Assembly (NCBI GenBank): GCA_964446205.1
Contig: CAYUNZ010000002.1
Span: 1 to 48,693, forward strand
Direction: 5' to 3'
Source: an uncultured Desulfohalobiaceae bacterium
GTDB lineage: Bacteria > Desulfobacterota > Desulfovibrionia > Desulfovibrionales > Desulfothermaceae
DNA length: 48,693 nt
The position numbers were made by a program, and so were the translations under genes. The notes under the pieces were generated by a model that did no database searches, was not told the DNA's origin, and saw nothing but the letters and a program-made list of their open reading frames with translations. This document shows, one piece after another, positions 5,083 through 29,702 of this stretch; position 1 is the stretch's first letter; each line of letters starts with the position of its first letter.

Positions 5083-5159
5083 ATGGAATGGACAATATAC
5101 CCTTTACTTTTTTGGGACAATAAATGATTTAGGCCAAAATAGATAAGAAATTAGCAAGG

Positions 5160-5560
5160 TAGTTTTATTATATAACTATTTATAATAATTACACTTCAAT
5201 GTTTTAAAGCCAGTATCACTGGTTTATTTTAATTGTAGACATATCCTTAAGGCATACTGTTTTAGACCTATTATCAACAGATTTATTCACATAAAAACTA
5301 TAATTTTCCACAGGAAAAAGTTTAATTTGCGCTATATTTCTAAAAATTTTTATATATTTTGAAATTATTGATATATATCAAAGTATTAACTTATACATTT
5401 TTTTCAATTTTATGACATGTTATCGACAACTATATTAAGGTATTTACTTTTAACAAGTATTTTAGTTATTTATATGGCAATCACCTTTGTTTTAGGAGAC
5501 AACTGTACAAAGTCAAAAATCAAGAATCTAGATTGAGCACTTCTAACCTGATTTACTGAT
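5160..5560. other. Candidate oriC: DnaA-box cluster plus AT-rich unwinding region upstream of dnaA
   Basis: TTATTCACA (5283-5291) matches TTATNCACA exactly. One-mismatch boxes are TTATCAACA (5271-5279), TTTTCCACA (5304-5312) and TTATCGACA (5420-5428). The stretch 5330-5410 is extremely AT-rich. Confidence 0.5.
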
Positions 5561-5854
5561 ATTTTTGGTTGTTAATAGTTAGTTTCTATCCAAAAAACTG
5601 TTTTTTTTTCCGTTTGACTGGGTCAATGTGGGTAAAAACCCCTTTAATCTCTTGTTCTAACTCTTTGATTTTAAATCTCATTTCTTTTATGGTTTCTATT
5701 CTTTGTGTATACAATAATAACTCTTTGCGGTTGCATCTTGTATGTTTGATGGGGTCAAGGAGTAAGGTCAAAAAATTTGAGGTCAAACTTTGACATTACT
5801 ATGGGTTTTACATTATAGACATGGTCAAAACATTGAGTGATTATACCTCAAGGT

Positions 5855-6027
5855 TGGCATGAAAAAAGCTGTGAGCATGAAAAGGGTGTGAATCGAGAAC
5901 CGTGAAATGTGAACCGTAAGACGAAGATGTTAAGAAATAAATCCTTGATTCTTATTTCTTCGGTCAACGGTTTACCCGGTTAAATCTCTTTTTATTGAAC
6001 TGGGTCAACGGTTCACGGTCAACGTTT
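5855..6027 (-). repeat. Heptamer-array intergenic repeat, copy C (full length, inverted orientation)
   Basis: The reverse complement aligns with copies A and B, including the core AAAAAGAGATTTAACCGGGTAAACCGTTGACCGAAG. Arrays are GTGAATC GAGAACC GTGAAAT GTGAACC (5888-5915) and GGTCAAC GGTTCAC GGTCAAC (6003-6023). The GCATGAAAA end motif is duplicated at 5857-5886. Confidence 0.8.
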
Positions 6028-6041
6028 TTTTAGTACAAACA

Positions 6042-6077
6042 CATATGTTCTAGTAGGTACAACGAAGGATGAAAGAA
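6042..6077 (-). repeat. Solo tail module of the heptamer-array repeat
   Basis: The reverse complement TTCTTTCATCCTTCGTTGTACCTACTAGAACATATG matches the tails of copies A and B (TTTCATGCTTCGTTGTACTCGGCTAGGGTCAT). No adjacent array belongs to it. Confidence 0.6.
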
Positions 6078-6156
6078 TATAATATGCATTAGCTAAGCTA
6101 AATCTTCTATTCCAGCATTTCATGCAGTTTATTTCATGTCTTACAGATTTCTTAAA

Positions 6157-6262
6157 CCCTGACCGTTCACCGTAGTCTGTTGAGCTTTTATTGAAGGAAT
6201 TTCTTCAGTCTTTTTTCATACGGTTCACTGTCCACGGATAACGGTTCACGTTCTTTATACTG
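6157..6262 (+). repeat. Heptamer-array intergenic repeat, copy D (short, diverged, forward)
   Basis: Left units CCTGACC GTTCACC GTAGTCT (6158-6178). Right array GGTTCAC TGTCCAC GGATAAC GGTTCAC (6222-6249), followed by GTTCTTTATAC. Lacks the conserved A/B/C core. Confidence 0.65.
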
Positions 6263-6310
6263 GCTGTTTATTGTTATTTAAAAAAACAATTAAAAAAGGA
6301 GTGAACGAGA

Positions 6311-8074: not shown

Positions 8075-8103
8075 TTCTATCCTTGTGTAACTGTACCCTC
8101 CCA

Positions 8104-8136
8104 AGGCCTGCATGTTTTTCATGCAGGCCTTTTTTT
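8104..8136 (+). terminator. Rho-independent terminator of fhs
   Basis: AGGCCTGCAT (8104-8113) pairs with ATGCAGGCCT (8121-8130) in a perfect 10-bp GC-rich stem with a 7-nt loop, followed by TTTTTT (8131-8136). Confidence 0.85.
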
Positions 8137-8166: not shown

Positions 8167-8195
8167 TTGACATGTAGTCATTATATAACTAGAAT
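8167..8195 (+). promoter_or_regulatory. Candidate sigma70 promoter P1 upstream of the bam-like operon
   Basis: TTGACA (8167-8172), a 17-nt spacer, then TAGAAT (8190-8195). Confidence 0.45.
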
Positions 8196-8285
8196 ATGAC
8201 TAATTTTTAATTTGTTGACTGAAATCATTACTTTTTCAGTGAACTATCAATAGTTTTTATTTTATGTGGACAGAAAAAATATATA

Positions 8286-8314
8286 TTGACATATAGCTAC
8301 ATTGTAACTATCAT
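8286..8314 (+). promoter_or_regulatory. Candidate sigma70 promoter P2 upstream of the bam-like operon
   Basis: TTGACA (8286-8291), a 17-nt spacer, then TATCAT (8309-8314). The -10 element overlaps the palindrome AACTAT-cat-ATAGTT (8306-8320). Confidence 0.45.
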
Positions 8315-8441: not shown

Positions 8442-10400
8442 ATGAGGTACGCAGAAACAGGGTATAATTTAGAGGTAGATCTAACCCGAGGGAATATTGA
8501 GAAGGTACAGACTGATCCCAAGTTAACCAAACTTTATCTGGGAGGCCAGGGGACCGCAGCTAAGATACTTTGGGATAGGGTCCCTCCAGAGGTTGACCCG
8601 CTTTCTCCTGAGAATCTACTGATATTTAGTGCCGGGATTTTGGATGGCACGCCTGTTCCCGGTGCCAATCGCACCAATGTTAGTACTATTTCTCCCCAGA
8701 ATAATCTGTATAAAGATTCCTTGTTTGGAGGATTTTTTGGTCCGGAATTGAAACATGCTGGATACGACAAAATAGTTCTTAAAGGTAGGGCCTCTAACTT
8801 GGTTTATTTGTGGATAAACAATGACAAAGTGGAGATACGTGATGCTAGTCATCTACAGGGAAAAGGGGCCGGAGAGACTGCAGATATAATCAAAGAAGAG
8901 CTGGATGATCTAGATATTCAGGTAGCGGCAATTGGCCTGGCCGGAGAAAATAGGGTTGCCATGGCCTCGATTGAACACTCTAATGCCAGCTCCTCTCGCG
9001 GAGTTGGCGTGGTTATGGGTGATAAGCGTTTAAAGGCCATTGCTGTTCGAGGGACAAAAGATCTCAATATAGCCAAACCGGCTGAACTCTTTGAGAAAAG
9101 TCTAGACATGTTTCAATATATTTATGACCACCCGGAATATTGTGGGGATTTTATGGCCCACGAGGATGACGAAGAGTGGCACGTTGACAATTTCGCCTGG
9201 GGCAATGCCAGGGAGCGAAGAAAGGGTTTTTGGAATAAAGAACGGGAAGAGAGATGGAAGGCCCTCTCTGAAAGTATCAGATATAGATGGAACGGTTGCT
9301 ATAACTGCCCAAGGGATTGCCATCAAGCCTTACAGTATCCAGGACATCATACTATCTTCCAAAAATGCTATAGTAAGCTAACTTATGCTATGGCTGCCTA
9401 TGAGGAACTGGATTTCAATTATAAGATGATCAGCCGGACCCAGCAGTATGGACTGGATGGATACTCAACACCTCAGGTTTTAGCTTTTGCAGTTGAGTTA
9501 TACGAAGCTGGTATCTTAACAGATGAAGATCTGCCTGATTTCCCATCTGACAGCGCTGGGAGATTTTTTTATTTATTGGAGAAGATAGTTCATAGGGATG
9601 GTTTTGTCGGTGACGCCTTGGCTGAGGGAGTCTATCATGCAGCTCGTAAGATTGGCCGAGGGGCTGAGGAGTATGATCACAATACAATGAAAAAGAATGA
9701 GCAGGTACCGGTCAAGCTGGGCCGGGTTGCCTATCATTATTTCCTGATGTACGCCACTGGAGAAAAGATGAATATTACACAAATAGAAGGTTCCTTCCCC
9801 CAGATACCAATTCCGGATAAAGAAGCGAGGGAAAAATTTGTCCAAGGCTGGGATGCAGCTCCTGATTATTTTAAGAATTTGTATTTGGAATGGGAACCAC
9901 GTACTCAATTATCGGTTGATGGGGCAGTCAGGGTAGTTGATTGGAATGAGCTCATGCACTATGTCGATGACTCAGTTGGTACTTGTGCCTTTTTGTCCTC
10001 TTTTAGAGGTCAGTTTGGCGGGCGGCCTCCCTATCACATTCATAACTTACCGGTTTTTATCTCTCAGGCTACAGGGATGGATATCGATGCAGATCAGTTA
10101 TGGGAAATCGCAGCTAGAAATCGGAATTTGGTCAGGGCGATCAATGTCAGAAGGGGGATGAGAAGAGAAGATGAGAGACCTCCTGAAGATCATTGGAAGA
10201 AAAGAGAACCGGAGATGGAACAAAAATTACTTGATGAGTATTATAAATTTAAGGGCTGGACCAATGATGGTATCCCTACCAAAGGTAGATTGGACGAGCT
10301 TGATTTGGATTATGTCAGCCAAGAGCTTATTGACAGAGGTATCATAACCGGAAATGAGGAATATCTATCACAAAGTTCTTCAACAGAAGAAACGGCATAA
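8442..10400 (+). CDS. bamB: AOR-family tungstopterin oxidoreductase, BamB-like (catalytic subunit of class II benzoyl-CoA reductase)
   Basis: 652 aa. The N-terminal domain is of aldehyde:ferredoxin oxidoreductase type, and the [4Fe-4S] motif is CYNCPRDC. It is the first gene of a BamC/D/E/F-like series. Assignment to BamB rather than a generic AOR rests on that context. Confidence 0.7.
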   Translation: MRYAETGYNLEVDLTRGNIEKVQTDPKLTKLYLGGQGTAAKILWDRVPPEVDPLSPENLLIFSAGILDGTPVPGANRTNVSTISPQNNLYKDSLFGGFFGPELKHAGYDKIVLKGRASNLVYLWINNDKVEIRDASHLQGKGAGETADIIKEELDDLDIQVAAIGLAGENRVAMASIEHSNASSSRGVGVVMGDKRLKAIAVRGTKDLNIAKPAELFEKSLDMFQYIYDHPEYCGDFMAHEDDEEWHVDNFAWGNARERRKGFWNKEREERWKALSESIRYRWNGCYNCPRDCHQALQYPGHHTIFQKCYSKLTYAMAAYEELDFNYKMISRTQQYGLDGYSTPQVLAFAVELYEAGILTDEDLPDFPSDSAGRFFYLLEKIVHRDGFVGDALAEGVYHAARKIGRGAEEYDHNTMKKNEQVPVKLGRVAYHYFLMYATGEKMNITQIEGSFPQIPIPDKEAREKFVQGWDAAPDYFKNLYLEWEPRTQLSVDGAVRVVDWNELMHYVDDSVGTCAFLSSFRGQFGGRPPYHIHNLPVFISQATGMDIDADQLWEIAARNRNLVRAINVRRGMRREDERPPEDHWKKREPEMEQKLLDEYYKFKGWTNDGIPTKGRLDELDLDYVSQELIDRGIITGNEEYLSQSSSTEETA

Positions 10401-10410
10401 GATTTAGGGG

Positions 10411-10968
10411 GTGATAACCGTGAGTGATGGTCCAAAAACAAAAATTGTCAAAAAGATAAATGTTGATCTTGATAAGTGCATTGGCTGTCGGGCCTGTGAG
10501 ATGGCCTGCTCTGCATTTCATGCTGAACCAAAATACAGCATTGTTAATCCGGCAAGATCCCGTATTCGGGTGGTGATGGATGAAGTCAATGATGTCTATG
10601 TACCTATCAGAGCCGGTGATTATACGCCTGCTGAATGCAATGGCCGTCATACCTATACGATCAACGGTAAGGAGTATAAGGAGTGCAGTTTTTGCGGGGT
10701 TTGTTGCCCGGCTAGGGACTTGTTTAAGGAGCCTGATTCCGGACTACCTCTGAAATGTGATATGTGCGAAACTGATCCACCTTTGGAAGAGCCGGTATGC
10801 GTTCAAGTTTGTCGGGTTGATGCTTTGACTTATGAAGAATGGGAAGAGGAAATAGAAGAAGAGGAAGAAAAGCGAGAAGATTTACAGATAGGGCTGGAAG
10901 CATTGGCCAATAAATATGGTCTGGATAAAGTCATGGATACAATGGTTCAAATGTCAGAAACAGACTAA
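10411..10968 (+). CDS. bamC: Multi-[4Fe-4S] electron-transfer subunit, BamC-like
   Basis: 185 aa. Cys clusters are CIGCRACEMAC, CSFCGVCCP and CDMC...CVQVC, with an acidic C-terminus. The GTG at 10420 may be the true start, because the GGGGG RBS ends at 10410. Confidence 0.65.
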   Translation: MITVSDGPKTKIVKKINVDLDKCIGCRACEMACSAFHAEPKYSIVNPARSRIRVVMDEVNDVYVPIRAGDYTPAECNGRHTYTINGKEYKECSFCGVCCPARDLFKEPDSGLPLKCDMCETDPPLEEPVCVQVCRVDALTYEEWEEEIEEEEEKREDLQIGLEALANKYGLDKVMDTMVQMSETD

Positions 10969-11001
10969 AAAATTAGTAAGGCAAAAAGTGAGGATTTAAT
11001 T

Positions 11002-12153
11002 GTGGAAGCAGTAGCACCTTTCCAAGAGGTAATAGAAGAGATTAAACAGGCCGGTGGAGAAAGCTTTAGATTATGCTTCCAATGCGGACTATGTGATACT
11101 GTCTGTCCCTGGAACAAGGTCAGGAATTTTAGTATCCGCAAAATAATCCGGGAAGCTGCCTTTGGATTGTCCGAGATCGAAGGTGAAGAAATATGGCGCT
11201 GCACCAGCTGTGGCAAGTGTCCGGATCAATGCCCTAGGGGAGTAAGTCAGATAGACCTGGGAATCTCCTTAAGACGAATTGCTTCAGAGTACGAGATCTT
11301 TCCTACTTCTGTCCGTCCGGCTAGAACCGCTAGAGCAAGTCTTATCTCCGAAGGTAATCCCCTGCAAGGAGAGAGAAACAATCGGGCTGACTGGGCTAAA
11401 GATCTCTCAGTGAAAACTTTCACCGAAGATATGGATGTACTATATTTCCCTGGATGCTATCTTTGCTATGATCCTAGGATGAAAAAGGTGGCAGCCGCAA
11501 CTGTGAATATACTGAAAAAAGCTGGTGTTGACTTTGGAATACTTGGGACCAAAGAAAATTGTTGCGGGGAAAGTATAAGAAAGATAGGCAGCGAGGAAGT
11601 ATTCAAAACTCTAGCCAAAGAAAATATCAAAGCCTTTGTTGAAAATGGGGTCAAAAGGATTGTCGTGTCTTCTCCTCATTGTTATCACACCTTCAAGAAT
11701 GAATACCCGGAGTTTATGGTCAACTTCGACGTAATTCACATCTCTCAATACTTGTTAGAGCTTATCAATGAAGGGAAGTTGCAACTTAACCAGGAATACG
11801 GAAAAAAAGTAACTTACCATGATCCCTGTTATTTAGGTAGGCACAATGATATATATGATGAACCGCGAGAAATCCTAAAGAATATTCCTGGATTACAACT
11901 CAATGAGATGTCTGAAACAGGTAAATATAGTCTATGTTGCGGTGGTGGGGGTGGCAGAATATGGATGGATACGCCAAAGGATGAAAGATTCTCAGATATC
12001 AGATTGAAACAAGCCAATGATGTTGGGGCTGACGTTCTGGTTACCTGTTGTCCATACTGCATCACTAACTTTGAGGAAAGTAAATTGAATCTGGAATATG
12101 ATGATGTTTTAGATATTAAGGACATTACCGAGATTATCCAGGAAGTAATTTAG
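11002..12153 (+). CDS. bamD: HdrD-like Fe-S protein with two CCG domains, BamD-like
   Basis: 383 aa, GTG start with a GAGGA RBS. Two ferredoxin motifs (CFQCGLCDTVCP, CTSCGKCPDQCP) and two cysteine-rich CCG domains (CCGES, CCGGGGG, CPYC). Confidence 0.7.
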   Translation: MEAVAPFQEVIEEIKQAGGESFRLCFQCGLCDTVCPWNKVRNFSIRKIIREAAFGLSEIEGEEIWRCTSCGKCPDQCPRGVSQIDLGISLRRIASEYEIFPTSVRPARTARASLISEGNPLQGERNNRADWAKDLSVKTFTEDMDVLYFPGCYLCYDPRMKKVAAATVNILKKAGVDFGILGTKENCCGESIRKIGSEEVFKTLAKENIKAFVENGVKRIVVSSPHCYHTFKNEYPEFMVNFDVIHISQYLLELINEGKLQLNQEYGKKVTYHDPCYLGRHNDIYDEPREILKNIPGLQLNEMSETGKYSLCCGGGGGRIWMDTPKDERFSDIRLKQANDVGADVLVTCCPYCITNFEESKLNLEYDDVLDIKDITEIIQEVI

Positions 12154-12178
12154 GTAAACCAAAAAAACCTGAAAAAGG

Positions 12179-15100
12179 ATGGAGAAAGTGGAACAAGAAC
12201 AAGTATCCAAAGAAAGAATTCAACAACTATGCAATCGACATGGAGAGAGTAGTTTTGGAGATGTCATGGTTGTTGGTGGTGGGATAAGCGGCATCCAAGC
12301 CTCTTTAGATCTAGCCGGTGCTGGTTTTAAGGTTTATCTTATTGAGAAGTCCCCTGCTATCGGCGGTCATATGGCCCAGCTGGATAAGACCTATCCAACC
12401 AATGACTGCTCGATGTGAATACTCTCGCCAAAACTGGTCGAGGTCGACCGGCATCCAAATATAGAGGTTTTAACCTATACAGAAGTCGATAAAGTAGAAG
12501 GACAGGCAGGGGATTTTAATGTATCTCTGACCAGAAAGCCTAGATACATTAAAGAGGACAAATGCACTGGTTGTGGTACTTGTGCAGAATACTGCCCGGT
12601 TAACATCCCTGATCCATTTAATCAGGAGATATCTCAGAACAAAGCAGTCCATGTCTACTTTGCTCAGGCAATACCCCTTATAGCCTATATTGATGAAAAC
12701 TGTCTCTACCTTAAAGAAAATAAATGCCGTATCTGCGAAGCTGTTTGTGATAATAAGGCCATTGACCTTAATCAAAAAGAAGAGAAGGTAGAAGTAAATG
12801 TCGGAGCCATCCTTTTGTCTCTGGGCTATGATGTCTTTGATCCCAAAGTCAGGGACGAGTATGGCTATGGCAAGCTCCAGAACGTGGTAACCAGCATGGA
12901 CTTTGAACGTCTGTTGTGTGCAACTGGCCCATATGAAGGAGAGATACTTCGTCCTTCTGATAAAGACTATCCTCACAAGATAGCCTGGCTTCAATGTATT
13001 GGTTCCAGACGCGTTACTCCTGGCGACAATAGTTATTGTTCAGCTGTATGTTGTACATATACCCAAAAACAAGTCATGTTAACCAAAGAGCATGACACCG
13101 AGGCAGAGTGTACTGTATTCCATAACGATATTCGTTCATATGGCAAAGACTTCGAGCTATATTACCAAAAAACAGATCAACTTTCCGGGACCAGGTTTAT
13201 AAGGAGTTATGCCTCAATAGTCGGAGAGAGTCCAGAGAGTAAGAATATAGTTATAAAATATTCTACTACTGATGAAGGTGTGAAAGAGGAAGAGTTTGAT
13301 CTGGTTGTTTTATCGGTTGGATTGAATCCTCCGGCAAATCATCATGAATTGGCCAATAAGTTTGGGATTGAATTAAATGAACACGGATTTTGTAAAACTG
13401 ATTCTTCCAATCTTATGAAGACCAGCAGACCTGGTATTTTTGTCAGTGGAGCCTTTCAGGGTCCCATGGATATTCCTGAGTCGGTCTTTACCGCTTGCGG
13501 AGCTGGTTCACAATTGGGAGAGTTCTTGAACAAGCGGCGATGGAGACTGACCAAAGACAGGATATATCCCCCGGAAAGGGATGTATCACAAGAGGCACCC
13601 CGGATAGGCGTCTTTGTTTGTCATTGCGGGGCTAATATCGGTCGGGTAGTCGATGTTCCCTCAGTTGTTGACTATTGTTTGACTTTACCCAATGTTGTCT
13701 ATGCCCAGGAACAGCTATTTTCATGCGCTACCAATTCTGCCAATGAAATCACTGATATGACTAAAGAAAAAGGTCTCAACCGGGTGATCATAGCTGCTTG
13801 CTCGCCAAGGACCCTGGAACCATTATTTAGGGATACCCTGCAAGAGGCAGGTATTAATCAATATTATCTGGATATGGCCAATATAAGGGAACATAACTCC
13901 TGGGTCCATGCCAAAGAACCTGAAGAGGCCACAGAAAAGGCTAAGGACCTGATTCGGATGTCTGCGGCACGAGCCGCCCATTTGGAGCCTTTACAGGATA
14001 TCGATTTACCGGTGACCAAGACGGCTTTGGTTGTCGGTGGGGGGATAGCCGGGATGACCTGTGCTCTGTCTATTGCCAACCAAGGACATGAGGTCCACTT
14101 GGTTGAAAAGGATTCAGACCTTGGTGGAATGGCCAGGAGAATCCATTACACTCTGGAAGGGATGGATGTGCAGGCCTATTTACATGATCTCATTCGAAAT
14201 GTTTATAAAAATCCTTTAATACATGTCTATCATAATGCTACTCTGACAGAGGCTACCGGTTATATTGGCAATTTCACAACCAAGGTCCAATCTGAAGGCA
14301 GGGTTCAAGAGATTGAACATGGAGCAACTATACTATCTATCGGGGCTGATGAATATCAACCCTCAGAATACCTCTATGGACAAGACGACAGGGTAATGAC
14401 CCATGTTGAGCTGGAAGAGAGGATTGCTAAGGGAGATGAAGATCTGAGCAATGCTGAAAGTCTGGTCATGATTCAGTGTGTAGGTTGCCGTAATGAAGAC
14501 AGAAATTATTGTTCGCGGGTATGCTGTAGTCATGCTATAAAGAACGCCTTAATGTTAAAAGATAAGAAACCGGAAATGGATATCTACATCCTGTATCGGG
14601 ATATGAGGACCTATGGCTTAAAAGAGGATTATTACCGTGAGGCAGCTGATAAAGATGTCAAGTTTATTCGGTGGGATCCAGAGGATAAACCGGAGATAGA
14701 GGCCACTAAAGAAGGGGGCAAGGATATTCTGCGTGTCACTGTATCTGATCCTATTTTGGGTGAAAGACTGGCTATAGATGCTGATTATCTCTCATTGGCC
14801 GCTGCTGTTGTTCCTCCGGAAGATAACAGTGAAATTGCTCAACTGTTCAAAGTGTCTTTGGGACCGGATCAATTTTTTAAAGAAGCCCATGTCAAATTGA
14901 GACCTGTTGAGTTCAGTGCAGACGGGGTTTTTCTCTGTGGAACGGCTCACTACCCCAAACACATTCCGGAAACGATAAATCAGGCTTATGGAGCTGCCGG
15001 TAGGGCCTTAACCCTTCTCTCTCATGAGATAGTCACAGTTTCCGGTGCTGTATGTGAGGTGGATGAGAACATGTGTATTGGCTGTGAGGCCTGTATGTCT

Positions 15101-15325
15101 GCCTGTACCTACGGGGCTATAGAAATGAAGGATACAAAACAAGGCAAAAAAGCTGTAGTTAATCCTGTCCTCTGTAAAGGTGATGGCCTCTGCAATGCCA
15201 AATGTCCAACAGGTGCAATCACCTTAAAGCACTTTACTGATCAGGAGATCTTGAGTCAGATTGATGTGGCTATACCAGAACAAGAGGCTGTCCAAGAGTA
15301 TGATGCGGCGGTTGGTGATGTCTAG
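12179..15325 (+). CDS. bamE: HdrA-like FAD/Fe-S flavoprotein with selenocysteine (in-frame UGA at 12416-12418), BamE-like
   Basis: ORFs 12179-12418 and 12815-15325 are in the same frame. I translated 12419-12814 and found no stop. The UGA sits in the motif [15 protein letters not shown], where HdrA homologues carry Cys. Also has two GxGxxG FAD motifs ([16 protein letters not shown]) and several ferredoxin motifs. Total 1048 codons. Confidence 0.8.
12434..12451 (+). promoter_or_regulatory. Candidate SECIS hairpin for the bamE-like UGA
   Basis: CUGGUC (12434-12439) pairs with GACCGG (12446-12451) in a 6-bp stem that includes one G-U pair. The apical loop is GAGGUC and starts 22 nt after the UGA. 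Confidence 0.35.
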
Positions 15326-15375
15326 AAATATAAAAAACATCGAGTCGAAATCCGCAATAAAGGAGGTGAGAACAA

Positions 15376-16227
15376 ATGAGCTCAGGGTTTATGTTTAAAC
15401 CTAGGATTTTAGGTTTTGTCTGCCATTGGTGAGGATATGGCGCTGCTGATTTGGCTGGAGTTTCCAGACTACAATATGCTACTGATGTAAGATTAATTCG
15501 TGTCATGTGCTCTGGTAGAATCGACCTGGATTTTGTCCTCAGGTCCTTCTCTAATGGGCTAGATGGGGTGATTATTTGTGGTTGTCACCTAAATGAATGC
15601 AATTATATTACCCATGGAAATTACGATGCCCTAAATATGGTCCTATTATGTAAAAAGATTTTGGAACATAAAGGCTTAAATCCGGAAAGGTTGAGAATTG
15701 AATTTATGTCAGCCGGAGAAGGTAACCGTTTTGCCGAAGTTATGAATGATTTCGGTAAAAAGGTGGAAGAGCTAGGTCCTTTGGGTCAAGGCGAGGGGCA
15801 GGAACAAAGTGAATTAAAGTCAGAAATAGAAGAGGTTAGAAAGCTGGTTCCTTATATCAAGATGGTGGAGAGGGACAAATTAGGGTCACGTATACAGAAT
15901 AAGGAAGAATATGAAGGGTTGTTTTCTAATGAAGAAGTAGAAAGTTTACTTACTGAAGTGCCCTCATATTATATTGATCCGGAAAAGTGTCAGGCTTGTA
16001 TGATTTGTCTTAGGAGATGTCCAGTGGAGGCGATTATTGGCGGCAAGAATCAAATCCATGTTATTGATCAGGATAAATGTATTAAATGCGGCACCTGTTT
16101 TGAGGCTTGTCCACCAAAATTTGGTGCAGTCAGAAAGATTACTGACGAGCCTGTTCCGCCTCCTGTCCCTGAAGAAGAGAGAACCATAGTTAGAAAGAAA
16201 AAAGAAAAATCTAAATCAGCTGGTTAA
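15376..16227 (+). CDS. bamF: MvhD-like/ferredoxin fusion protein with selenocysteine (in-frame UGA at 15430-15432), BamF-like
   Basis: ATG at 15376 lies behind an AGGAGGTG RBS (15361-15368). It reads MSSGFMFKPRILGFVCHW-U-GYGAADLAGVSRLQY, in frame with the track ORF at 15451. The UGA replaces the Cys of the conserved MvhD motif (C-x-W-C-x-Y-x-G-A-D-x-A-G). The C-terminus has two ferredoxin motifs (CQACMICLRRCP, CIKCGTCFEACP). Confidence 0.8.
15453..15469 (+). promoter_or_regulatory. Candidate SECIS hairpin for the bamF-like UGA
   Basis: GGCUGG (15453-15458) pairs with CCAGAC (15464-15469), with one internal mismatch. The apical loop is AGUUU and starts 27 nt after the UGA. Confidence 0.3.
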
Positions 16228-16256
16228 GAAACCAATATAATACGGAGGTAATCAAA

Positions 16257-17039
16257 TTGAAAATTCTGACAACAATAAAAAAGGTTATTGATGTGGAACT
16301 GAATCTCCACGTTCAGGACGGTTCCATAGTTGAGCAGGGTTTGCAATACGTTATAAATGCTTGGGACGAAAGTGCGGTTGAAACCTCTGTTCAGCTTAAG
16401 GAAAACAATAGTGCGGAAACAACTCTGGTTAGTATTGGTGGTGGAGACAATACCGATATCATCAGAAGATGTTATGCAATGGGGATTGAGAACGGAATCC
16501 ATATTGATGATCAATCCTGGGACAAGGCTGATTCATTTATCTTTGCCAAAACACTTCAAAAGGTTTATGAGAACGGTAATTACGATCTGGTCATCACCGG
16601 GAAGCAGGCCCAAGACACGGATAATGGTCAAACCGGTATTATTTTGGCTGAATATCTAGGTTTGCCTTGTGTCAGTAATGTCATTGGTATCGAAGTTGTT
16701 GATGATCAACACATTAAAGTCTCTCGAGCTGGTGATGGAGGGACAGAAATAATCGATTTAGAATTGCCGGCTGTTGTTACTGTTGACGTAAGTATCAACG
16801 AACCGAGACTGCCGTCAATGCGGGGTATTATGATGGCCAAGAAAAAGTCCTTTGATCAGATGGATCTGTCGGCTTTAGGGACTTCAGTGGATGAAATCGG
16901 ATTATCAAGCCCAAAATCGGAAGTTGTCGAATTTAAGGAACCTAAAATGCGTCAGGCCGGACAGAAATTTGAGGGTGATCCTGCTGAGATTACTCCTCAG
17001 GTAGTCAACCTTTTGGCCAATGAAGCAAAGGTATTATAG
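16257..17039 (+). CDS. etfB: Electron transfer flavoprotein, beta subunit
   Basis: 260 aa, TTG start 8 nt after a GGAGG RBS. The MKILTTIK N-terminus and overall sequence are typical of EtfB. Confidence 0.9.
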   Translation: MKILTTIKKVIDVELNLHVQDGSIVEQGLQYVINAWDESAVETSVQLKENNSAETTLVSIGGGDNTDIIRRCYAMGIENGIHIDDQSWDKADSFIFAKTLQKVYENGNYDLVITGKQAQDTDNGQTGIILAEYLGLPCVSNVIGIEVVDDQHIKVSRAGDGGTEIIDLELPAVVTVDVSINEPRLPSMRGIMMAKKKSFDQMDLSALGTSVDEIGLSSPKSEVVEFKEPKMRQAGQKFEGDPAEITPQVVNLLANEAKVL

Positions 17040-17105
17040 GTAAATTTAAAATTATCTAATATTATAGATTGGACAAAAACCAGATTCAGAAAGGGAAAAA
17101 ATACT

Positions 17106-18065
17106 ATGGCTAAAATACTCGTAATTGCAGATATTAAACAAGGTGTCTTGAAAGGTAGCACTTCCGAATTGTTATCTAAAGCTAAGGATCTTGGAGCAGA
17201 AACCGCAGTCTTGGCTATTGGCAGTAATATTGAGTCTCTAACTAATGATCTTGTTAATGCAGGGTCTGATACCCAATACATTGCAGATGACTCCAGTCTG
17301 GAACTTTTTTCCGCCACTCCTTATGCCTTTTGTGTACTAGACGCAGCCAAACAATTTGGGGCTGATCAGATTTGGTTCGGTTTTTCCGAAAGTGGTAAGG
17401 CAGTTGCTCCCAAAGTTGCAGCTCAGCTGGATGCAGCCTGCGCTACTGATATTGTCGATGTAACCTTGCAGGATGATCAGGTTGAGATAACCAGACCGGC
17501 ATATGCAAATAAGCTTATCCAGCGAGTCAAAGTCAATACAGAAAAATTAGTAGCTGTTGTCAGAGCTGGTGCCTTTGAGGCCACAGAAGGCATCTCCGGC
17601 ACTGAAAACGTGGTCAAGCTTTCCCCGCCAGAAAAGGATGTCAAGGCAGCCATTAAAGATATCATATCTGATGCAACCGGAGAGATTGAACTAACAGATG
17701 CCGATATAGTCATCTCAGTCGGTCGAGGAGTCAGGGATCAGGCCGGTGTTGATCAGGTAAAAGAACTGGCCAATGATCTGAATGCGGGTGTGGGTTCTTC
17801 CAGAGCTATGGTAGATGGTGGTTTCATGCCTCACAATACCCAGGTCGGACAAACAGGAAAGATTGTAGCTCCCTCCCTTTATATGGCTTTTGGTATTTCC
17901 GGAGCTATTCAGCACCTGGCCGGCATGACCGGTTCGAAAGTTATATTGGCTGTCAATAAAGACCCTGAGGCTCCGATTTTCAATGTGGCTGATTATGGTA
18001 TAGTTGGAGATTTGTTCGAGGTCCTTCCTATACTTAAGGAAGAGATTAAAAAGGTTAGAAGCTAG
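17106..18065 (+). CDS. etfA: Electron transfer flavoprotein, alpha subunit
   Basis: 319 aa with the EtfA FAD-binding signature PSLYMAFGISGAIQHLAGM. Confidence 0.9.
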   Translation: MAKILVIADIKQGVLKGSTSELLSKAKDLGAETAVLAIGSNIESLTNDLVNAGSDTQYIADDSSLELFSATPYAFCVLDAAKQFGADQIWFGFSESGKAVAPKVAAQLDAACATDIVDVTLQDDQVEITRPAYANKLIQRVKVNTEKLVAVVRAGAFEATEGISGTENVVKLSPPEKDVKAAIKDIISDATGEIELTDADIVISVGRGVRDQAGVDQVKELANDLNAGVGSSRAMVDGGFMPHNTQVGQTGKIVAPSLYMAFGISGAIQHLAGMTGSKVILAVNKDPEAPIFNVADYGIVGDLFEVLPILKEEIKKVRS

Positions 18066-18108
18066 AACAGTTTTTTCAGATCTTAATTCAATCGCTGACG
18101 AGGTGGCT

Positions 18109-20217
18109 ATGAATCCCCTTTTGATGTCTTTATTGCTCATTGTCGGTATAGGTATTTTTATTCGGACAATGTATTATAAGATCCGGTTATTAAGAGCATT
18201 GGAGCCAGCTGATCGACTCAATAATATCAAAGAGCGACTAAAGAATATGGTTGTTATAGCCATTGGTCAAAAGCGCTTGGTTGGGAGGAAGAGAGAGAGA
18301 TCTGCGGGAATAATGCACGCCTTAATCTTTTGGGGGTTTTTAATACTTTTAATCCGCAGTTTAAATCTTTATGGAATAGGATTTGTTCAAGGTTTTACCT
18401 TACCTTTTCTAGGTGATGACTCTATTTTGGGCTATCTATATTTGGCCCTTAAAGATATCGTCGAAGGCATCGTCCTCTTGATGATAATTTATGCCATCTT
18501 TCGTAGGGTGGTATTGAAACCGGAACGTTTACACAATACATGGGAAGCATATATTATTCTGGTCTTGATCGGGATATTGATGATCTCTGATCTATTATTG
18601 GATGGGGCTCGATACAATCTGGTTATATTACATAATAATCCGGAAAATTTACATTTTTTCAATAACCCCCAATACGGTTCTGAGTTTCTGTGGACACCTG
18701 TTGCTAGGGGGGCAGCAGGTCTTATATCTTGGATGAGTGCTAAGTCCAGTTTATATCTCATAACTGCCATGTTCTGGTTACATATAATCACCCAATTGGT
18801 CTTTCTAAATATTCTGCCCATAGGGAAACACTTCCATGTTATAACTGCCCTGCCCAATGTCTTTTTAAAGAGCCTGGGCTATCCACATGAAAAGACTAAA
18901 GTTTTGGATTTGGAGGATGAACAGGCCTGGGAAGACGAGTCTTTGGGAATAAATTATATTCATCAGCTCAATTGGAAACAAGGTTTGGACCTTTATACTT
19001 GTACAGAATGCGGTCGATGTAAGGAGGTATGTCCTGCTTATGTTACTGATAAACCATTAAGTCTACATGACTGTAATGATAGTTTAAAGTTTGAACTGTT
19101 GGATAATGCGGAAAATATAGTCAAAAGAGACAAGTTGGCGGCATCCCTCAAGCAAGTAGATGATTCAGAACAGATTGAAAAGATAAAAGCTGAAATGGCT
19201 GAGCTAGGTAGTAAAAAGCAGCTTATTGGTGATGTGATCTCTGAAGACACCCTTTGGGCCTGTACCACATGTCGAGCCTGTGAAGAGGTCTGTCCTGTGA
19301 CAATTGAACAGGTACCCCGTATACTTGCCATGAGACAGGGGCAGATGTTGATGGCTGAATCCTATCCCAAAGAGCTGAACTTGGCCTTTAAGGGCCTTGA
19401 ACGAAATGGCAATCCCTGGGGTATTGGATATGACAAACGGGCTGATTGGGCGCAAGGTCTGGATGTAAAGTTGATGTCTGAAGATTCTAATGTGGATTAT
19501 CTACTCTGGGTAGGTTGTGCTGGTTCTTTTGATGATAGAACCAAAAAGGTATCCACAAGCTTGGTAAAAATATTGCAAAAAGCTGGAATCAGTTTTGCTA
19601 TTCTTGGTGTCGAGGAGAAATGTACTGGTGATTTTGCTAGAAGGGCCGGTAATGAGATGTTGTACCAGATGATGGCTCAAGAGAATATCGAGACCCTAAA
19701 TAATTACAATGTCAAGAAGATAATAACTCCCTGTCCCCACTGCCTGAATACCCTTAAGCATGAATATCCTCAATTAGGCGGAAATTACCAGGTTTTCCAT
19801 CATTCGGAGTTTATTGATCAGCTCATAAAAGATGGCAAGATCAGTATAAACAATTCATTGGAAGGTTCTTTGACCTACCATGATCCCTGTTATCTTGGTC
19901 GCTACAACTCTGTTTACGATCAGCCCAGATCGGTTTTGCAGTCTATGGCCAAAGATGGTTTTAAAGAGCTTGATCGATATGGACGGGAAAGCTTTTGTTG
20001 TGGGGCCGGTGGTGCTAGGATGTGGATGGAAGAGACCATAGGGAAAAGGATCAATCTAGAGCGTTCAGAAGAGATAGTTGGTAAGCAAGTGCAGAATGTG
20101 GCTGTGGGATGTCCATTTTGCTTAACCATGATTGAAGACGGCATGAAAGAGCTTTACAAGGAAGATGAAATAAAGACTCAAGATATTGCTGAGCTTGTAG
20201 CCAAGTGTATGGTCTAA
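18109..20217 (+). CDS. Membrane-anchored Fe-S oxidoreductase with HdrD-like CCG domains (ETF:quinone oxidoreductase type)
   Basis: ATG at 18109 follows a GAGGTGG RBS. The track start at 18004 would overlap etfA. About five N-terminal hydrophobic helices, ferredoxin motifs CTECGRCKEVCP and CTTCRACEEVCP, and two CCG domains (CCGAGGARMW, GCPFC). Confidence 0.75.
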   Translation: MNPLLMSLLLIVGIGIFIRTMYYKIRLLRALEPADRLNNIKERLKNMVVIAIGQKRLVGRKRERSAGIMHALIFWGFLILLIRSLNLYGIGFVQGFTLPFLGDDSILGYLYLALKDIVEGIVLLMIIYAIFRRVVLKPERLHNTWEAYIILVLIGILMISDLLLDGARYNLVILHNNPENLHFFNNPQYGSEFLWTPVARGAAGLISWMSAKSSLYLITAMFWLHIITQLVFLNILPIGKHFHVITALPNVFLKSLGYPHEKTKVLDLEDEQAWEDESLGINYIHQLNWKQGLDLYTCTECGRCKEVCPAYVTDKPLSLHDCNDSLKFELLDNAENIVKRDKLAASLKQVDDSEQIEKIKAEMAELGSKKQLIGDVISEDTLWACTTCRACEEVCPVTIEQVPRILAMRQGQMLMAESYPKELNLAFKGLERNGNPWGIGYDKRADWAQGLDVKLMSEDSNVDYLLWVGCAGSFDDRTKKVSTSLVKILQKAGISFAILGVEEKCTGDFARRAGNEMLYQMMAQENIETLNNYNVKKIITPCPHCLNTLKHEYPQLGGNYQVFHHSEFIDQLIKDGKISINNSLEGSLTYHDPCYLGRYNSVYDQPRSVLQSMAKDGFKELDRYGRESFCCGAGGARMWMEETIGKRINLERSEEIVGKQVQNVAVGCPFCLTMIEDGMKELYKEDEIKTQDIAELVAKCMV

Positions 20218-21235: not shown

Positions 21236-22096
21236 ATGCTCTATCACCATTTTGCTAGCCAGGAAGAGATTGATGCTCAGTATGACCCTATGCGAGAACG
21301 TAAGGATGGGTCAGAATTGCTAGATAATTGGCGCAAGCTTAGCGCGGCGACTAGAACACGACTGACTTTGTGCCAAGACGTTGCTTATGGTCCGTCGTTA
21401 CCAGAGTGCCTGGATCTATTTTTTGCAGAGCAAGGCAAAGCCCCTCTACATATCTTTTTTCACGGTGGCTATTGGCGCGCGCTGAGTCACAAGGAGTTTT
21501 CTTTTATTGCTGATCGGTTTGTGGAAATCGGTATAAACGTAGCCATAGTAAATTACGCTCTGTGTCCAAATGTACACTTCAGTGAGCTGGTGCGACAGTG
21601 CCAAGCAGCACTGGTGTGGTTGTACCGCCACTCCAAAAAACTGGGCTTTGATGCTGAACAGATTACAATCTCCGGACATTCGGCGGGAGGTCATCTTTGC
21701 GCCATGCTGATGGCAACGGACTGGCAGAGGATGTTCGGTCTGCCAGACAAAGTAATACAGGGCGCTCTGGCGATAAGCGGTTTGTATGATCTACGGCCCT
21801 TTCCGTATTCATGGTTACAACCCAAGCTGCAACTTACTGGCCGTGAAATAATGAACTATAGCCCCTTATTCTTGCCGCCCAGGGTGCAAGCCCCGGTGAT
21901 CCTCACAGCTGGTGGTGAGGAGCCCGCTGAGTTCGAACGTCAAATGATTGCTTATGCCGAACATCTGCGAAACCATGGCCTTGAGGTCAGCCCGAGCATC
22001 AAGAACGGCGATGATCATTTTTCAATCCTCGAGCATTACATTCAGAGCGATGGCGACTTTGTGACTGCAATCAAAAGTCTGTTGTCTACTGACTAA
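21236..22096 (+). CDS. Alpha/beta hydrolase (esterase/arylformamidase-like)
   Basis: 286 aa with the oxyanion-hole motif HGGYW and the nucleophile elbow GHSAGGH. G+C is markedly higher than in flanking genes. Confidence 0.75.
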   Translation: MLYHHFASQEEIDAQYDPMRERKDGSELLDNWRKLSAATRTRLTLCQDVAYGPSLPECLDLFFAEQGKAPLHIFFHGGYWRALSHKEFSFIADRFVEIGINVAIVNYALCPNVHFSELVRQCQAALVWLYRHSKKLGFDAEQITISGHSAGGHLCAMLMATDWQRMFGLPDKVIQGALAISGLYDLRPFPYSWLQPKLQLTGREIMNYSPLFLPPRVQAPVILTAGGEEPAEFERQMIAYAEHLRNHGLEVSPSIKNGDDHFSILEHYIQSDGDFVTAIKSLLSTD

Positions 22097-22157
22097 GGGA
22101 TGGTTTTTCCCAAATAGATATTTTCCCGCTTGAGGTGAACTCTAAAGTTTATATTGA

Positions 22158-22838
22158 TTATACTCCTAAATAGCGGTCTTTTAGCGTGTTGGTCAAGTCA
22201 CTAGGCGGTCCGGTCCAGACGGTCTTACCTTTCTCAAGGATTATGCAGCTGTCAGCCAGTGGTAGTAGCTCTTTTAATGACTTATCAACTATAAGGGTGG
22301 ATAGCCCTTGCTGCTTGAATGTATGAATAGCCTTCCAAATTTCCTGACGAATTACTGGTCCTAGACCTTCGGTAGCTTCATCGAGAACCAATAATTTTGG
22401 GTTGGTCATTAGAGCTCGACCTATGGCCAGCATTTGTTGTTCACCGCCGGAGAGACTCCATGCCGGTTGATGGCTTCGTTCTGCCAGTCGCGGAAACATC
22501 GATTCAACCTTGGCCAAAGTCCAGTCACCGGGATTGGCAGCAACGAGTAGATTTTCGCGTACATTTAAATTTCTGAAGCATCGACGACCTTCTGGGACAA
22601 GGCCAAGGCCGAGCCGGGCAATACGGTGTGCCGGCAGTCCGGTAATGTCATGGCCATCAAATTCCACTTGACCAGCGTTTGGGGGAGTCAACCCAAAAAT
22701 TGATCGAATAGTTGTAGTTTTTCCCATACCATTGCGGCCCATGAGGGCTACCAATTGACCTGCTTTCAGGCTCAGATCAACTCTGAATAGTGCCTGTGAG
22801 GGGCCATAAAAGGTCTCTATTGCGGCTACGTTCAGCAT
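22158..22838 (-). CDS. livF: ABC transporter ATP-binding protein, LivF-like
   Basis: 226 aa. Walker A GRNGMGKTT, ABC signature LSGGEQQM, Walker B LLVLDE. Confidence 0.85.
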   Translation of the reverse strand: MLNVAAIETFYGPSQALFRVDLSLKAGQLVALMGRNGMGKTTTIRSIFGLTPPNAGQVEFDGHDITGLPAHRIARLGLGLVPEGRRCFRNLNVRENLLVAANPGDWTLAKVESMFPRLAERSHQPAWSLSGGEQQMLAIGRALMTNPKLLVLDEATEGLGPVIRQEIWKAIHTFKQQGLSTLIVDKSLKELLPLADSCIILEKGKTVWTGPPSDLTNTLKDRYLGV

Positions 22839-23584
22839 GCCTCGTCTCCCAGATAGGCTTCACGCACCTGTGGGTTGGTTCGTATGGCTTCGCTATTGCC
22901 GTGAGCAATCAATTCACCGCCCACGAGTACTGAGATGCGGTCGGCTAGCCGGAACACGGCGTCCATGTCATGTTCGATCAACAGGATGGGCACATTCTGT
23001 TTCAGGTTTTCCAGCAGACCTGTAAGTTTTTCTGTGCCTTCTGGTCCAAGTCCGGCCATAGGTTCGTCCAGTAAGAGGGCCTTGGGTTTGAGAGCCAAGG
23101 CGCATGCTATTTCCACTTGGCGACGTTCGCCGTGGGACAGCCTTGAGACCGGAATATCGGCACGGGTTTGCAGGCCAATTTGGGCCAGGGCTTCACTAGC
23201 CGGTTCGAGTAACTCAGGATCAGACTGTACTGGCTTCCAGAATCGGAATGGACTGCCCTGCAAGGCTTGCACAGACATCATGACATTACGTTTTACACTG
23301 AGTTTTTCGGCCAGTGACGAGACCTGGAAGGTACGCCCCAGTCCTTTACACGCTCTTGTTGCTATCGACAGACGGCTAAGGAACTCACCGTCTAGACAGA
23401 TCTCACCGCTGTCCTGCTTTAAATTGCCTGAAATCAGACTGATCAAAGTTGATTTACCGGCTCCGTTGGGTCCGATCAGAGCGTGAATTTCACTTTTCAT
23501 CAGGTCCAGAGATACACAACGAGTGGCATGCAAAGCACCGAAAGACTTGTCCAGGTCCTGGATATTTAGAATGGCTTTAGACAT
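22832..23584 (-). CDS. livG: ABC transporter ATP-binding protein, LivG-like
   Basis: Walker A GPNGAGKST, signature LSHGERRQ, Walker B LLLDEP. The start is set at MSKAILNIQDL (23584), not the longer track ORF. Confidence 0.85.
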   Translation of the reverse strand: MSKAILNIQDLDKSFGALHATRCVSLDLMKSEIHALIGPNGAGKSTLISLISGNLKQDSGEICLDGEFLSRLSIATRACKGLGRTFQVSSLAEKLSVKRNVMMSVQALQGSPFRFWKPVQSDPELLEPASEALAQIGLQTRADIPVSRLSHGERRQVEIACALALKPKALLLDEPMAGLGPEGTEKLTGLLENLKQNVPILLIEHDMDAVFRLADRISVLVGGELIAHGNSEAIRTNPQVREAYLGDEAC

Positions 23585-25527: not shown

Positions 25528-25544
25528 AACTGTGTCCTATAGGA

Positions 25545-28844: not shown

Positions 28845-29702
28845 ATGAGCAATATTGAGGTTCTGCAAAAAATTAGAAATATTCGGGAACTACCGGCACT
28901 ACCAGCCGTGGCCAGCAAGGTCCTGGAAATTGCCAGTGATCAGGATTCAACAGCCAAAGAGCTAAGTAAGGTCATATCCCAGGATCAATCATTGACCACC
29001 AGGACATTGAAATTGGTTAATTCAGCCTATTACGGATTTCCCCGGACAGTTAGTAAAATAACCGAAGCTGTAGTTATCCTTGGTTTTAATACTGTCAAGA
29101 ACTTAGCCTTATCTGTCTCTGTCTGTAACTTTTTTGGTGGTGGTCAAGGTGATTTTGACCGGAAACGACTTTGGGAACATTCGGTTGGTGCTGCGGTTGC
29201 TGCTACCATACTGGCCAAAAAGGCTATGATGAAATCCTTTATTGAGGATCTTTTTGTAAGTGGTCTACTACACGACATTGGTCTTATTATTGAAGATCAA
29301 TATTTCCATGAGCAGTTTTTACAGGCCCTTGCTATGTCAGAAAACAAAAATATACCTATTGAAATAGCCGAAAGAGACATACTTGGTATAGATCATGCTA
29401 TGATTGGTAAAAAGATTGGCGAGACATGGAAGCTGCCATCAAAGATCAATAATATTATTGGCTTCCATCATCAACCGCAGTATGCCAATGGGGAAACCAA
29501 AAAAGAGACCTCTGTTATTTATATTGCTGATCTTGTTTGTAAGTTACAGGGATTTGGCTTTGATGGTGACCAGGTAGTCCCGACTCTGAGAAAAGAGCCA
29601 TTTACTGTTCTAGGTATCTCTAAGGAAGAGTTGAAAGAGATAACCAAAGAGTTTGAGGTAGATATTGAAAAAGCCCAAGACTTTCTTGAACTTATCAGGT
29701 AA
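28845..29702 (+). CDS. HDOD domain signalling protein
   Basis: 285 aa. Has the N-terminal LPALPAVASKVLEI motif and an HD-like GLLHDIGL motif, both typical of HDOD. Confidence 0.8.
   Translation: MSNIEVLQKIRNIRELPALPAVASKVLEIASDQDSTAKELSKVISQDQSLTTRTLKLVNSAYYGFPRTVSKITEAVVILGFNTVKNLALSVSVCNFFGGGQGDFDRKRLWEHSVGAAVAATILAKKAMMKSFIEDLFVSGLLHDIGLIIEDQYFHEQFLQALAMSENKNIPIEIAERDILGIDHAMIGKKIGETWKLPSKINNIIGFHHQPQYANGETKKETSVIYIADLVCKLQGFGFDGDQVVPTLRKEPFTVLGISKEELKEITKEFEVDIEKAQDFLELIR

Follow-up and report, generated by a model that had tools for sequence, protein, structure and literature searches.

A class II benzoyl-CoA reductase operon without BamGHI and with a putative ferredoxin input domain in BamF

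We analyzed a stretch of 48,693 nucleotides (hereafter the window) from contig CAYUNZ010000002.1 of an uncultured Desulfohalobiaceae bacterium (NCBI assembly GCA_964446205.1), which carries the eight consecutive genes bamB-bamC-bamD-bamE-bamF-etfB-etfA-emo. This operon probably encodes a class II, ATP-independent, tungsten/selenium aryl-coenzyme A (aryl-CoA) reductase of a widespread variant that lacks BamG, BamH and BamI and that would receive ferredoxin electrons through BamF. The locus is one member of a widespread and apparently undescribed cluster type. More tentatively, the enzyme might be a self-sufficient ring reductase with a single bifurcation, in which ferredoxin alone, entering via BamF, would supply both benzoyl-CoA and the electron-transferring flavoprotein (ETF)/menaquinone branch, with no NADH and no second flavin module.

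The closest known system is the benzoyl-CoA reductase of class II (BCRII) from Geobacter metallireducens, Bam[(BC)2DEFGHI]2, which was also isolated from Desulfosarcina cetonica. Enzymes of this class operate near -620 mV, a potential beyond the range common in biology. A structure of the Geobacter complex by cryo-electron microscopy, together with in-cell cryo-electron tomography, has been reported (2026 preprint from the Boll, Schuller and Engel groups). In that preprint, BamGHI is a confurcating input module of the HydBC type that draws on NADH and reduced ferredoxin. External reduced ferredoxin donates to the C-terminal 2x[4Fe-4S] domain of BamH (clusters H1/H2), BamI hands electrons to BamE, and BamF serves as an adaptor that touches BamI with its winged helix-turn-helix. 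Bifurcation takes place at BamE, from which one electron goes to BamBC and the second to BamD. The in-cell partner at BamD is ETF, the high-potential acceptor, which is thought to be re-oxidized by the membrane ETF:menaquinone oxidoreductase (EMO); in vitro, electron transfer by BCRII from dienoyl-CoA to ETF proceeds readily. ETF docks on the non-cubane clusters of BamD and of EMO (two 2026 preprints). Reconstitution of coupled ring reduction in vitro has yet to be achieved, and with the Geobacter enzyme ferredoxin-ETF short circuits obscured coupling.

The BamF proteins surveyed have their first ~195 residues in common and then continue into one of two alternative C-terminal endings. Short BamF (255 aa) carries a tail of ~60 residues (LAISQI...STGEIS...SEVSRHLNSSSRQGLVRYDE), which gave a Pfam HTH_5 match in the BamF of locus L090 (L numbers denote loci fetched in our survey) and which we take to be the winged helix-turn-helix that docks BamI in the preprint. 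Long BamF (278-288 aa) ends with two CxxCxxCxxxCP motifs and a Pro-rich tail. The window BamF gave no HTH_5 match, and in it the ~60-residue tail is replaced by a 2x[4Fe-4S] domain. Over 83 aa, this domain shares 64% identity with the very end of BamH from Geobacter argillaceus; by tblastn, its identity to 23 BamH C-termini averages 68% (range 53-81%), and that to 25 other long BamF proteins is 80%. Its best matches in the PDB are the C-termini of HydB/Bfu subunits, and the best 120 database homologues of the window BamF all have the FlpD + Fer4 architecture. The domain is a copy of the ferredoxin acceptor of BamH itself, and what replaces BamGHI would sit inside BamF. The MvhD-like/ferredoxin fusion had been recognized correctly in an initial annotation of this stretch, but its meaning, namely that a BamH-type acceptor domain replaces the tail, had been missed.

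For the survey, BamB homologues were aligned, and 80 BamB loci were fetched from the GTDB species genomes listed, plus relatives; among the GTDB matches listed, the best had 73% identity. The eight proteins of the window and BamG, BamH and BamI of a Geobacter argillaceus locus were then mapped onto these loci. With the latter three as tblastn queries, nothing was detected in the window itself except a cross-match to the C-terminus of BamF, and no tblastn match to a HydBC-like BamGHI was found in the flanks of 85%-identical relatives. The comparison of BamF endings comprised about 50 BamB-seeded clusters. Short BamF next to BamE was followed by BamG/H/I matches in 27 of 27 clusters (one of them, L031, had a weak BamI-like match only), whereas long BamF was followed by BamGHI in none of 24 (22 clean cases and two with split matches, the window included). 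The C-terminal type of BamF was strictly tied to the presence or absence of BamGHI, in an all-or-none manner across the survey. After the cross-match of the BamF ferredoxin domain to BamH had been discounted in assigning cluster types, the two types were found interleaved on a neighbor-joining tree of BamB, both in the Geobacter-like clade and in the clade of the window, and they occurred in Desulfobacterales, Desulfatiglandales, Syntrophobacteraceae, Bacillota, Dethiobacteria and Chloroflexota metagenome-assembled genomes. EMO assignments made along with that tree are unreliable, since EMO cross-matches BamD. No conserved alternative input gene was detected 3' of long BamF in these loci, where neighbors varied (FdhD, SelA, GNAT, CoA ligase and molybdoenzymes).

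Several other arrangements were seen among the fetched loci. On the contig of L079 (1-17898), a long-BamF cluster is joined head to tail with a complete cluster of the BamGHI type; therefore, both types can coexist in one genome. In L028 (16909-19842, Desulfosarcina variabilis), BamF and BamG are fused in one frame of 425 aa and BamH has only 547 aa. BamH matches in L016, L034, L058, L063 and L076 end at about residue 545-557, i.e., without the C-terminal ferredoxin domain. A third bam architecture was present in L088/L089 (3888-8079, Desulfobacula sp. assembly) and L091 (3842-8019), in which bamD-E is followed by a short MvhD-like gene with two UGA codons for selenocysteine (Sec), a Cys-rich gene of 272 aa, a Sec-containing formate-dehydrogenase-like molybdopterin gene, fdhD and then etfB-etfA-emo; Zn-ADH/SDR/enoyl-CoA-hydratase-family genes lie 3' of etfBA-emo. 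A similar molybdopterin gene comes after long BamF in L009 (10389-12455). The third architecture suggests a formate-linked input module.

All eight genes of the bam/etf/emo set lie on the plus strand, and the open reading frames and translations agree with the coordinates and sizes in the initial annotation (Table 1). Its description of five consecutive genes matching bamB to bamF in order, size and motifs is borne out by the open reading frames, Pfam matches and signature residues, and its statement that no NuoEFG/BamGHI-like gene is present in the window agrees with the tblastn result above. The 652-aa protein, which it had taken as BamB-like, scored 808 bits with 59% identity against the crystallized G. 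metallireducens BamB (4z3w), and 231 bits against the best aldehyde oxidoreductase (AOR; 1aor). The Cys322 equivalent is aligned and conserved; a protein Cys ligand to tungsten at this position is diagnostic for BamB and is not found in aldehyde oxidoreductases. By these measures the protein is of the BamB type. A generic AOR was also considered for this gene and was ruled out by the difference between the two scores. BamC is 53-86% identical to the BamC proteins encoded directly after BamB in other loci. Directly 5' of bamB, some Geobacter-type loci have BamB-like paralogues in which Cys322 is replaced by Asn or Ser (L022 7983-9953, L045 10001-11971, L017 8034-10013 and L025 8031-10013).

Residues Glu251, His255, Glu257 and His260 of BamB have been described as 'invariant' in the Zn/proton relay. 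In a MAFFT alignment, the equivalents of Glu257 and His260 (the proposed proton donor) are kept in the window protein. However, the relay loop is 5 residues shorter, DFMAHEDDEEWHVDNF versus GSPQEMKVHDEKWHTENF, the latter being the Geobacter loop with Glu251 and His255. At the Glu251 position, HMMER pairs the window protein with a Glu and MAFFT leaves the residue unmatched, and the His255 position is Asp in both alignments. The window BamB sits in an uncharacterized subclade that has this 5-residue loop deletion.

BamD has the signature SSPHC, with Ser where EMO proteins have Cys (xCPHC), and this was common to 54 BamD homologues. We infer that the site is equivalent to the Cys-to-Ser substitution of Geobacter BamD, which has a disrupted distal cluster. 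BamD and the cytoplasmic domain of the window EMO are paralogous (35% identity over 325 aa), and BamD is the predicted docking site of ETF. BamE contains two GxGxxG FAD folds. In two BamE homologues, the CSMC pair stands where the window protein has Cys77-x-x-Sec80, which is taken here as the equivalent of Geobacter Cys59/Cys62. By the numbering offset from the CxxU motif, Lys298 corresponds to Lys280, located at N5 of the bifurcating FAD. Bifurcation is predicted to occur in BamE. At the in-frame UGA codons noted initially in bamE and bamF, homologous loci with a matching motif around the site have the same codon in 41 of 41 cases for BamF and 33 of 34 for BamE; judged by this conservation, both are selenocysteine positions and not frame breaks. 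The same counts rule out that bamE and bamF are pseudogenes with premature stops.

The motif of EtfB, GKQAQDTDNGQTG, resembles that of the human protein, GKQAIDDDCNQTGQ (AMP-binding type), and not the bifurcating motif GRQAIDGDTAQVGP, and the top matches among solved structures were the human, Paracoccus and Methylophilus ETFs, which are non-bifurcating. These features classify the window ETF as canonical and non-bifurcating, and a bifurcating ETF was ruled out by the motif (GKQAQDTDNGQTG versus GRQAIDGDTAQVGP). The 702-aa protein matched Mycobacterium smegmatis EtfD (PDB 9ojn_A) with E = 6e-126. It has ~5 hydrophobic or transmembrane segments, with the invariant His70, His225 and His243 in or near membrane segments, and its soluble part contains two CxxCxxCxxxC motifs (eight cluster Cys) and the Cys residues of two CCG domains; on this similarity it is a member of the EtfD/EMO family, as originally proposed.

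Orthologues of these genes end other bam clusters (identities of 77-79% for EMO, 73-75% for EtfB and 78-79% for EtfA), and the orthologous etfBA-emo closes clusters of three input arrangements (L090, L088/L091 and the window) in several genera. In addition, ETF/EMO lineages unrelated to that of the window (26-44% identity) and with another gene order follow the long-BamF clusters L049, L062, L067 and L069, and in Desulfococcus multivorans bamOP is found inside the bam cluster. An association that recurs in this way, in part independently, speaks for a direct functional link of the reductase with ETF/EMO. The order in L090 is bamD-E-F(FlpD + HTH_5)-G-H-I-etfB-etfA-emo; therefore, ETF/EMO accompanies BamGHI and does not replace it, and this gene order indicates a link that is independent of the absence of BamGHI. 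The route from ETF via the membrane protein to menaquinone is very plausibly the high-potential branch in the window. The initial annotation had proposed this branch, and here it stands, but it had placed it instead of BamGHI, and that part is not supported, because the canonical enzyme uses the same exit and L090 has both. Nor is there support for the suggestion that the route represents a different solution to the energetics of ring reduction, since the ETF/menaquinone exit is the model for the canonical Geobacter enzyme. In the synteny survey that it had called for, etfBA-emo did recur at bam clusters, but also beside BamGHI (L090).

The gaps bamF-etfB, etfB-etfA and etfA-emo measure 29, 66 and 43 nt, as claimed initially. 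Consensus scans, on which all promoter and terminator calls rest, detected no terminator-like site near these gaps and weak promoter-like matches only, so that, as the initial annotation required, no terminator or strong promoter parts etfBA from the upstream genes. Because a terminator and two promoter-like sites precede bamB and nothing comparable occurs in the three gaps, bamBCDEF-etfBA-emo has the layout of one operon, and its genes look co-transcribed.

In the variant, BamF would have lost the winged-helix tail that binds BamI and would have a BamH-type 2x[4Fe-4S] domain in its place. Reduced ferredoxin would donate directly to this domain, and electrons would pass through the [2Fe-2S]/Sec19 region of BamF to the Cys77/Sec80 pair of BamE and to the bifurcating FAD (Lys298). 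The low-potential electron would then move uphill through the clusters of BamE and BamC to the tungsten site of BamB and on to benzoyl-CoA or a close analogue, and the high-potential electron would move downhill through BamD and the canonical ETF to the EtfD/EMO membrane protein and menaquinone. The roles of BamGHI, BamE, BamD and ETF in this scheme are carried over from the literature on the Geobacter enzyme, and we infer that ferredoxin would be the sole donor and benzoyl-CoA the substrate. With published potentials of about -500 mV for the donor and of -622 mV and roughly 0 mV for the acceptors (ETF +16 mV, menaquinone -74 mV), a single bifurcation would be comfortably exergonic. The cost of the variant would be that ferredoxin has to supply each of the four input electrons per ring, instead of NADH supplying half of them.

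It is conceivable, though we consider it unlikely, that a canonical BamGHI encoded elsewhere joins BamBCDEF in trans and that the enzyme then works like the Geobacter complex. In strain NaphS2, BamB-F and BamG-I are in separate clusters, L079 holds both cluster types in one genome, and bamGHI genes may also lie elsewhere in the genome of this organism, where our search covered the window and the flanks of relatives. However, the window BamF has no winged-helix-type tail to meet BamI and carries the ferredoxin-acceptor domain of BamH, and the all-or-none relation seen in the survey points away from such a partnership (BamGHI adjacent in 0/24 long-BamF versus 27/27 short-BamF clusters). Another improbable reading is that ETF and EMO serve acyl-CoA dehydrogenases of the lower pathway (glutaryl-CoA, cyclohexenoyl-CoA), so that their adjacency to bamB-F reflects co-regulation and the BamD electron goes elsewhere. 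Acyl-CoA dehydrogenases are established to pass electrons to menaquinone by way of ETF and EMO/EtfD, other ETF/Fe-S oxidoreductase pairs of D. multivorans adjoin acyl-CoA dehydrogenase genes, and the window EtfB is of the canonical type that such dehydrogenases use. Yet the window contains no acyl-CoA dehydrogenase gene, the Geobacter ETF binds BamD in cells and accepts dienoyl-CoA electrons from BCRII in vitro, and ETF-EMO orthologues end bam clusters in several genera. The two roles are also compatible, as one ETF pool could serve both. We find it very unlikely that this BamB is a paralogue, and not the housekeeping reductase, acting on another aryl-CoA or alicyclic CoA ester or working mainly in the oxidative direction, from dienoyl-CoA to the aromatic compound with electrons to ETF. 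The altered Zn/proton-relay loop and the identity of 59% to the characterized BamB would fit such a role, as would the ready dienoyl-CoA to ETF reaction of BCRII in vitro; of the two BamB paralogues in D. multivorans, which differ in expression pattern, one shares 64% and the other 79% identity with Geobacter BamB. On the other hand, the tungsten-ligating Cys, the catalytic His260 and Glu257 are retained, the operon is followed 6.6 kb downstream by a gene of the benzoate-CoA ligase family with an ABC transporter, and the same BamB subclade is also paired with full BamGHI sets in L011, L014 and L022.

Several further points weigh against a ferredoxin-fed benzoyl-CoA reductase. The substrate could differ, given the distance of the BamB subclade from the Geobacter enzyme and its altered loop. 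The BamF ferredoxin domain could wire another partner and not free ferredoxin: in L009, long BamF is followed by a formate-dehydrogenase-like molybdopterin protein, and in L092 and L093 a long BamF is encoded with no BamB nearby. Neither bamA/Q/R nor acyl-CoA dehydrogenase genes were found in the window, nor were other lower-pathway genes there, and the window is known as a metagenome-assembled contig, from its sequence alone. With regard to the two loci just named, long BamF stands with a BamE-like gene only in L092 (6848-10867, on a 3.98-Mb contig), and in L093 (10001-10762, closed genome CP070752.1) it stands alone beside selA; the long-BamF module may serve other partners there.

The ferredoxin-fed variant can be compared with several known systems. 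It resembles Geobacter Bam in the Cys ligand to tungsten of BamB, in BamC, in the Ser-for-Cys CCG signature of BamD, in a BamE that is a fused double HdrA with the Cys-pair position and the FAD lysine, in an MvhD-like BamF with Sec19, and in ETF and EMO as the high-potential exit. It differs in that BamG, H and I are missing from the window and BamF ends in the BamH-type 2x[4Fe-4S] domain instead of the winged-helix-type tail, that the second Cys of the BamE redox pair is a selenocysteine, that BamB has the 5-residue deletion in the Glu251/His255 loop, and that etfBA and emo lie within the same operon. The 'BamB-F' clusters of strain NaphS2 (NPH_7171-7176) and of culture BzS1 consist, like the window, of genes B to F with no adjacent G-I. 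Unlike the window, NaphS2 has BamG-I elsewhere, and the NaphS2 and BzS1 papers are silent on BamF domains and on the electron donor. As in the methanogen complexes MvhAGD-HdrABC and FdhAB-MvhD-HdrABC, an MvhD-type adaptor would feed an HdrA-type bifurcating FAD and an HdrBC/HdrD-like branch would take the high-potential electron. In contrast to these complexes, the low-potential branch would end at a tungsten aryl-CoA reductase and not at ferredoxin, the high-potential acceptor would be ETF and not a heterodisulfide, and the adaptor itself bears a ferredoxin-type input domain and would dock no hydrogenase. The last ~85 residues of the window BamF are like the C-terminal ferredoxin domain of HydB/BfuB-type subunits (HydABC, NiFe-Bfu, BamH), which is described as a ferredoxin interaction site; however, in the window an MvhD-like protein carries this domain as a fusion, apart from the FMN/NADH core and with no NADH site. 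Finally, the window EMO, judged from its translation, combines a predicted membrane domain of the heme-b type with an HdrD-like Fe-S/CCG domain beside etfBA, as do the EMO of Syntrophus aciditrophicus and mycobacterial EtfD. It is shorter than EtfD (702 versus 1042 aa) and, unlike its Syntrophus and mycobacterial counterparts, is encoded in a ring-reduction operon and not in a beta-oxidation context.

If nature has a version that lacks the HydBC-like confurcation module, it would offer a system of smaller size and less complexity. From it one could learn whether a single HdrA-type bifurcation suffices for benzene-ring reduction when ferredoxin donates and ETF co-accepts, and also what the NADH-linked module adds. 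If the proposed reading is correct, then, together with the BamGHI type and the formate-dehydrogenase-like type of the Desulfobacula contigs, a BamBCDE core would take interchangeable inputs and have one ETF-EMO output. About half of the surveyed BamB-seeded clusters are of the long-BamF type, and the variant should be allowed for in surveys in which bamB stands as a marker of anaerobic aromatic degradation or in which full bamB-I is required. The role of ETF as acceptor of the canonical enzyme was known already, as was the label 'BamB-F', which is in use as a class II reductase annotation in some sulfate reducers (NaphS2, BzS1). We found no description of the BamF tail swap, of its all-or-none relation to BamGHI or of interchangeable inputs in the searchable literature, in which mentions of bamBCDEF, BamDEF and BamB-F are gene inventories only; priority is uncertain.

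Table 1. Features of the bam/etf/emo operon and its surroundings in the window
Feature	Coordinates	Strand	Basis or remarks
dnaA	3739-5082	-	
Probable replication origin region	3739-6310		dnaA, then AT-rich stretch
Five DnaA-box-like sites	5271-5635		
Intrinsic-terminator-like hairpin, 12 bp stem + T-run	8103-8131	+	just 3' of fhs; boundary between fhs and the bam genes
Two strong sigma-70-like promoter matches	8167-8195 and 8286-8314 (8167-8314)	+	5' of bamB; each agrees at 11/12 positions
bamB, tungsten-pterin catalytic subunit, 652 aa	8442-10400	+	Pfam AFOR_N + AFOR_C
bamC, poly-[4Fe-4S] subunit, 185 aa, 13 Cys	10411-10968	+	Pfam Fer4
bamD, HdrD-like, 383 aa, 2 cubane motifs + 2 CCG	11002-12153	+	Pfam Fer4_8 + 2x CCG
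bamE, fused double HdrA-like flavoprotein, 1048 aa	12179-15325	+	Pfam two FAD/NAD folds + Fer4 motifs
Predicted UGA Sec codon 80 of bamE, motif NDCSM-U-IL	12416-12418	+	7-bp hairpin begins 18 nt downstream
bamF, long form, 283 aa: MvhD-like domain with Sec19, linker, 2x[4Fe-4S]	15376-16227	+	Pfam FlpD (158 bits) + 2 Fer4
Predicted UGA Sec codon 19 of bamF	15430-15432	+	residue number same as Sec19 of Geobacter BamF
BamH-type ferredoxin domain of BamF, residues ~196-283, two CxxCxxCxxxCP motifs	15961-16224	+	identity to BamH C-terminus
etfB, small ETF subunit, canonical non-bifurcating type	16257-17039	+	Pfam ETF
etfA, large ETF subunit (FAD domain), 319 aa	17106-18065	+	Pfam ETF + ETF_alpha only, no Fer4 match
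emo, ETF:menaquinone oxidoreductase, EtfD/EMO family, 702 aa	18109-20217	+	Pfam Fer4 + 2x CCG
GNAT acetyltransferase, 150 aa	20627-21079	+	likely counterpart of bamK
Liv-type ABC transporter	22158-26687	-	open reading frames + translations
Benzoate-CoA ligase family gene	26822-28438	-	TIGR02262, 546 bits (cut-off 375)
Signaling block	28845-45995		downstream of the ligase gene; translations

The GNAT gene that follows the operon has homologues in 20 other fetched loci, mainly Bam loci of both types, where they are often located immediately 5' of bamB (e.g., L051 9422-9865, L087 9543-9950, L049 9472-9897, L046 8755-9189 and L090 16691-17125). In G. metallireducens, bamK (Gmet_2077) is a benzoate-induced N-acetyltransferase. 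The window gene probably corresponds to bamK. Together with the ligase and the ABC transporter, this bamK-like gene favors a context of aromatic acid metabolism.

The Liv-type ABC transporter genes differ in composition from their surroundings (GC content of 0.48-0.50 at 22001-26000 versus ~0.42 in the flanks), which may reflect gain from another genome. Named from the translations alone, the genes of the large signaling block would encode an HD-GYP-like protein, a phosphatase of the PP2C type and a regulator with a PAS domain, along with a complete chemotaxis set (cheA, cheW, cheR, cheB and cheD-like genes, more than one of the cheY-like kind, and two for methyl-accepting proteins). Scans of the window with Rfam (gathering thresholds) and for tRNAs gave no matches. 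Proteins identical to those of the window were found on short contigs of metagenome-assembled genomes only, under the NCBI label 'Desulfohalobiaceae bacterium'. For the ETF-EMO genes, the nearest homologues with a name belong to Desulfobacula and Desulfobacteraceae, and given these relatives the family-level label may be unreliable.

At the other end of the window, dnaA is followed by an AT-rich stretch (GC content of 0.34 in 4001-6000) with five DnaA-box-like sites, and this is probably the replication origin region. The gene order dnaA-fhs-bam operon is kept in 85%-identical relatives (L003). One relative (L006 6240-8768, GCA_963986425.1) has an additional bamB-bamC pair upstream of this conserved dnaA-fhs-bamB region. 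The pair is 90% (BamB) and 76% (BamC) identical to that of the window and adjoins a transposase-associated gene.

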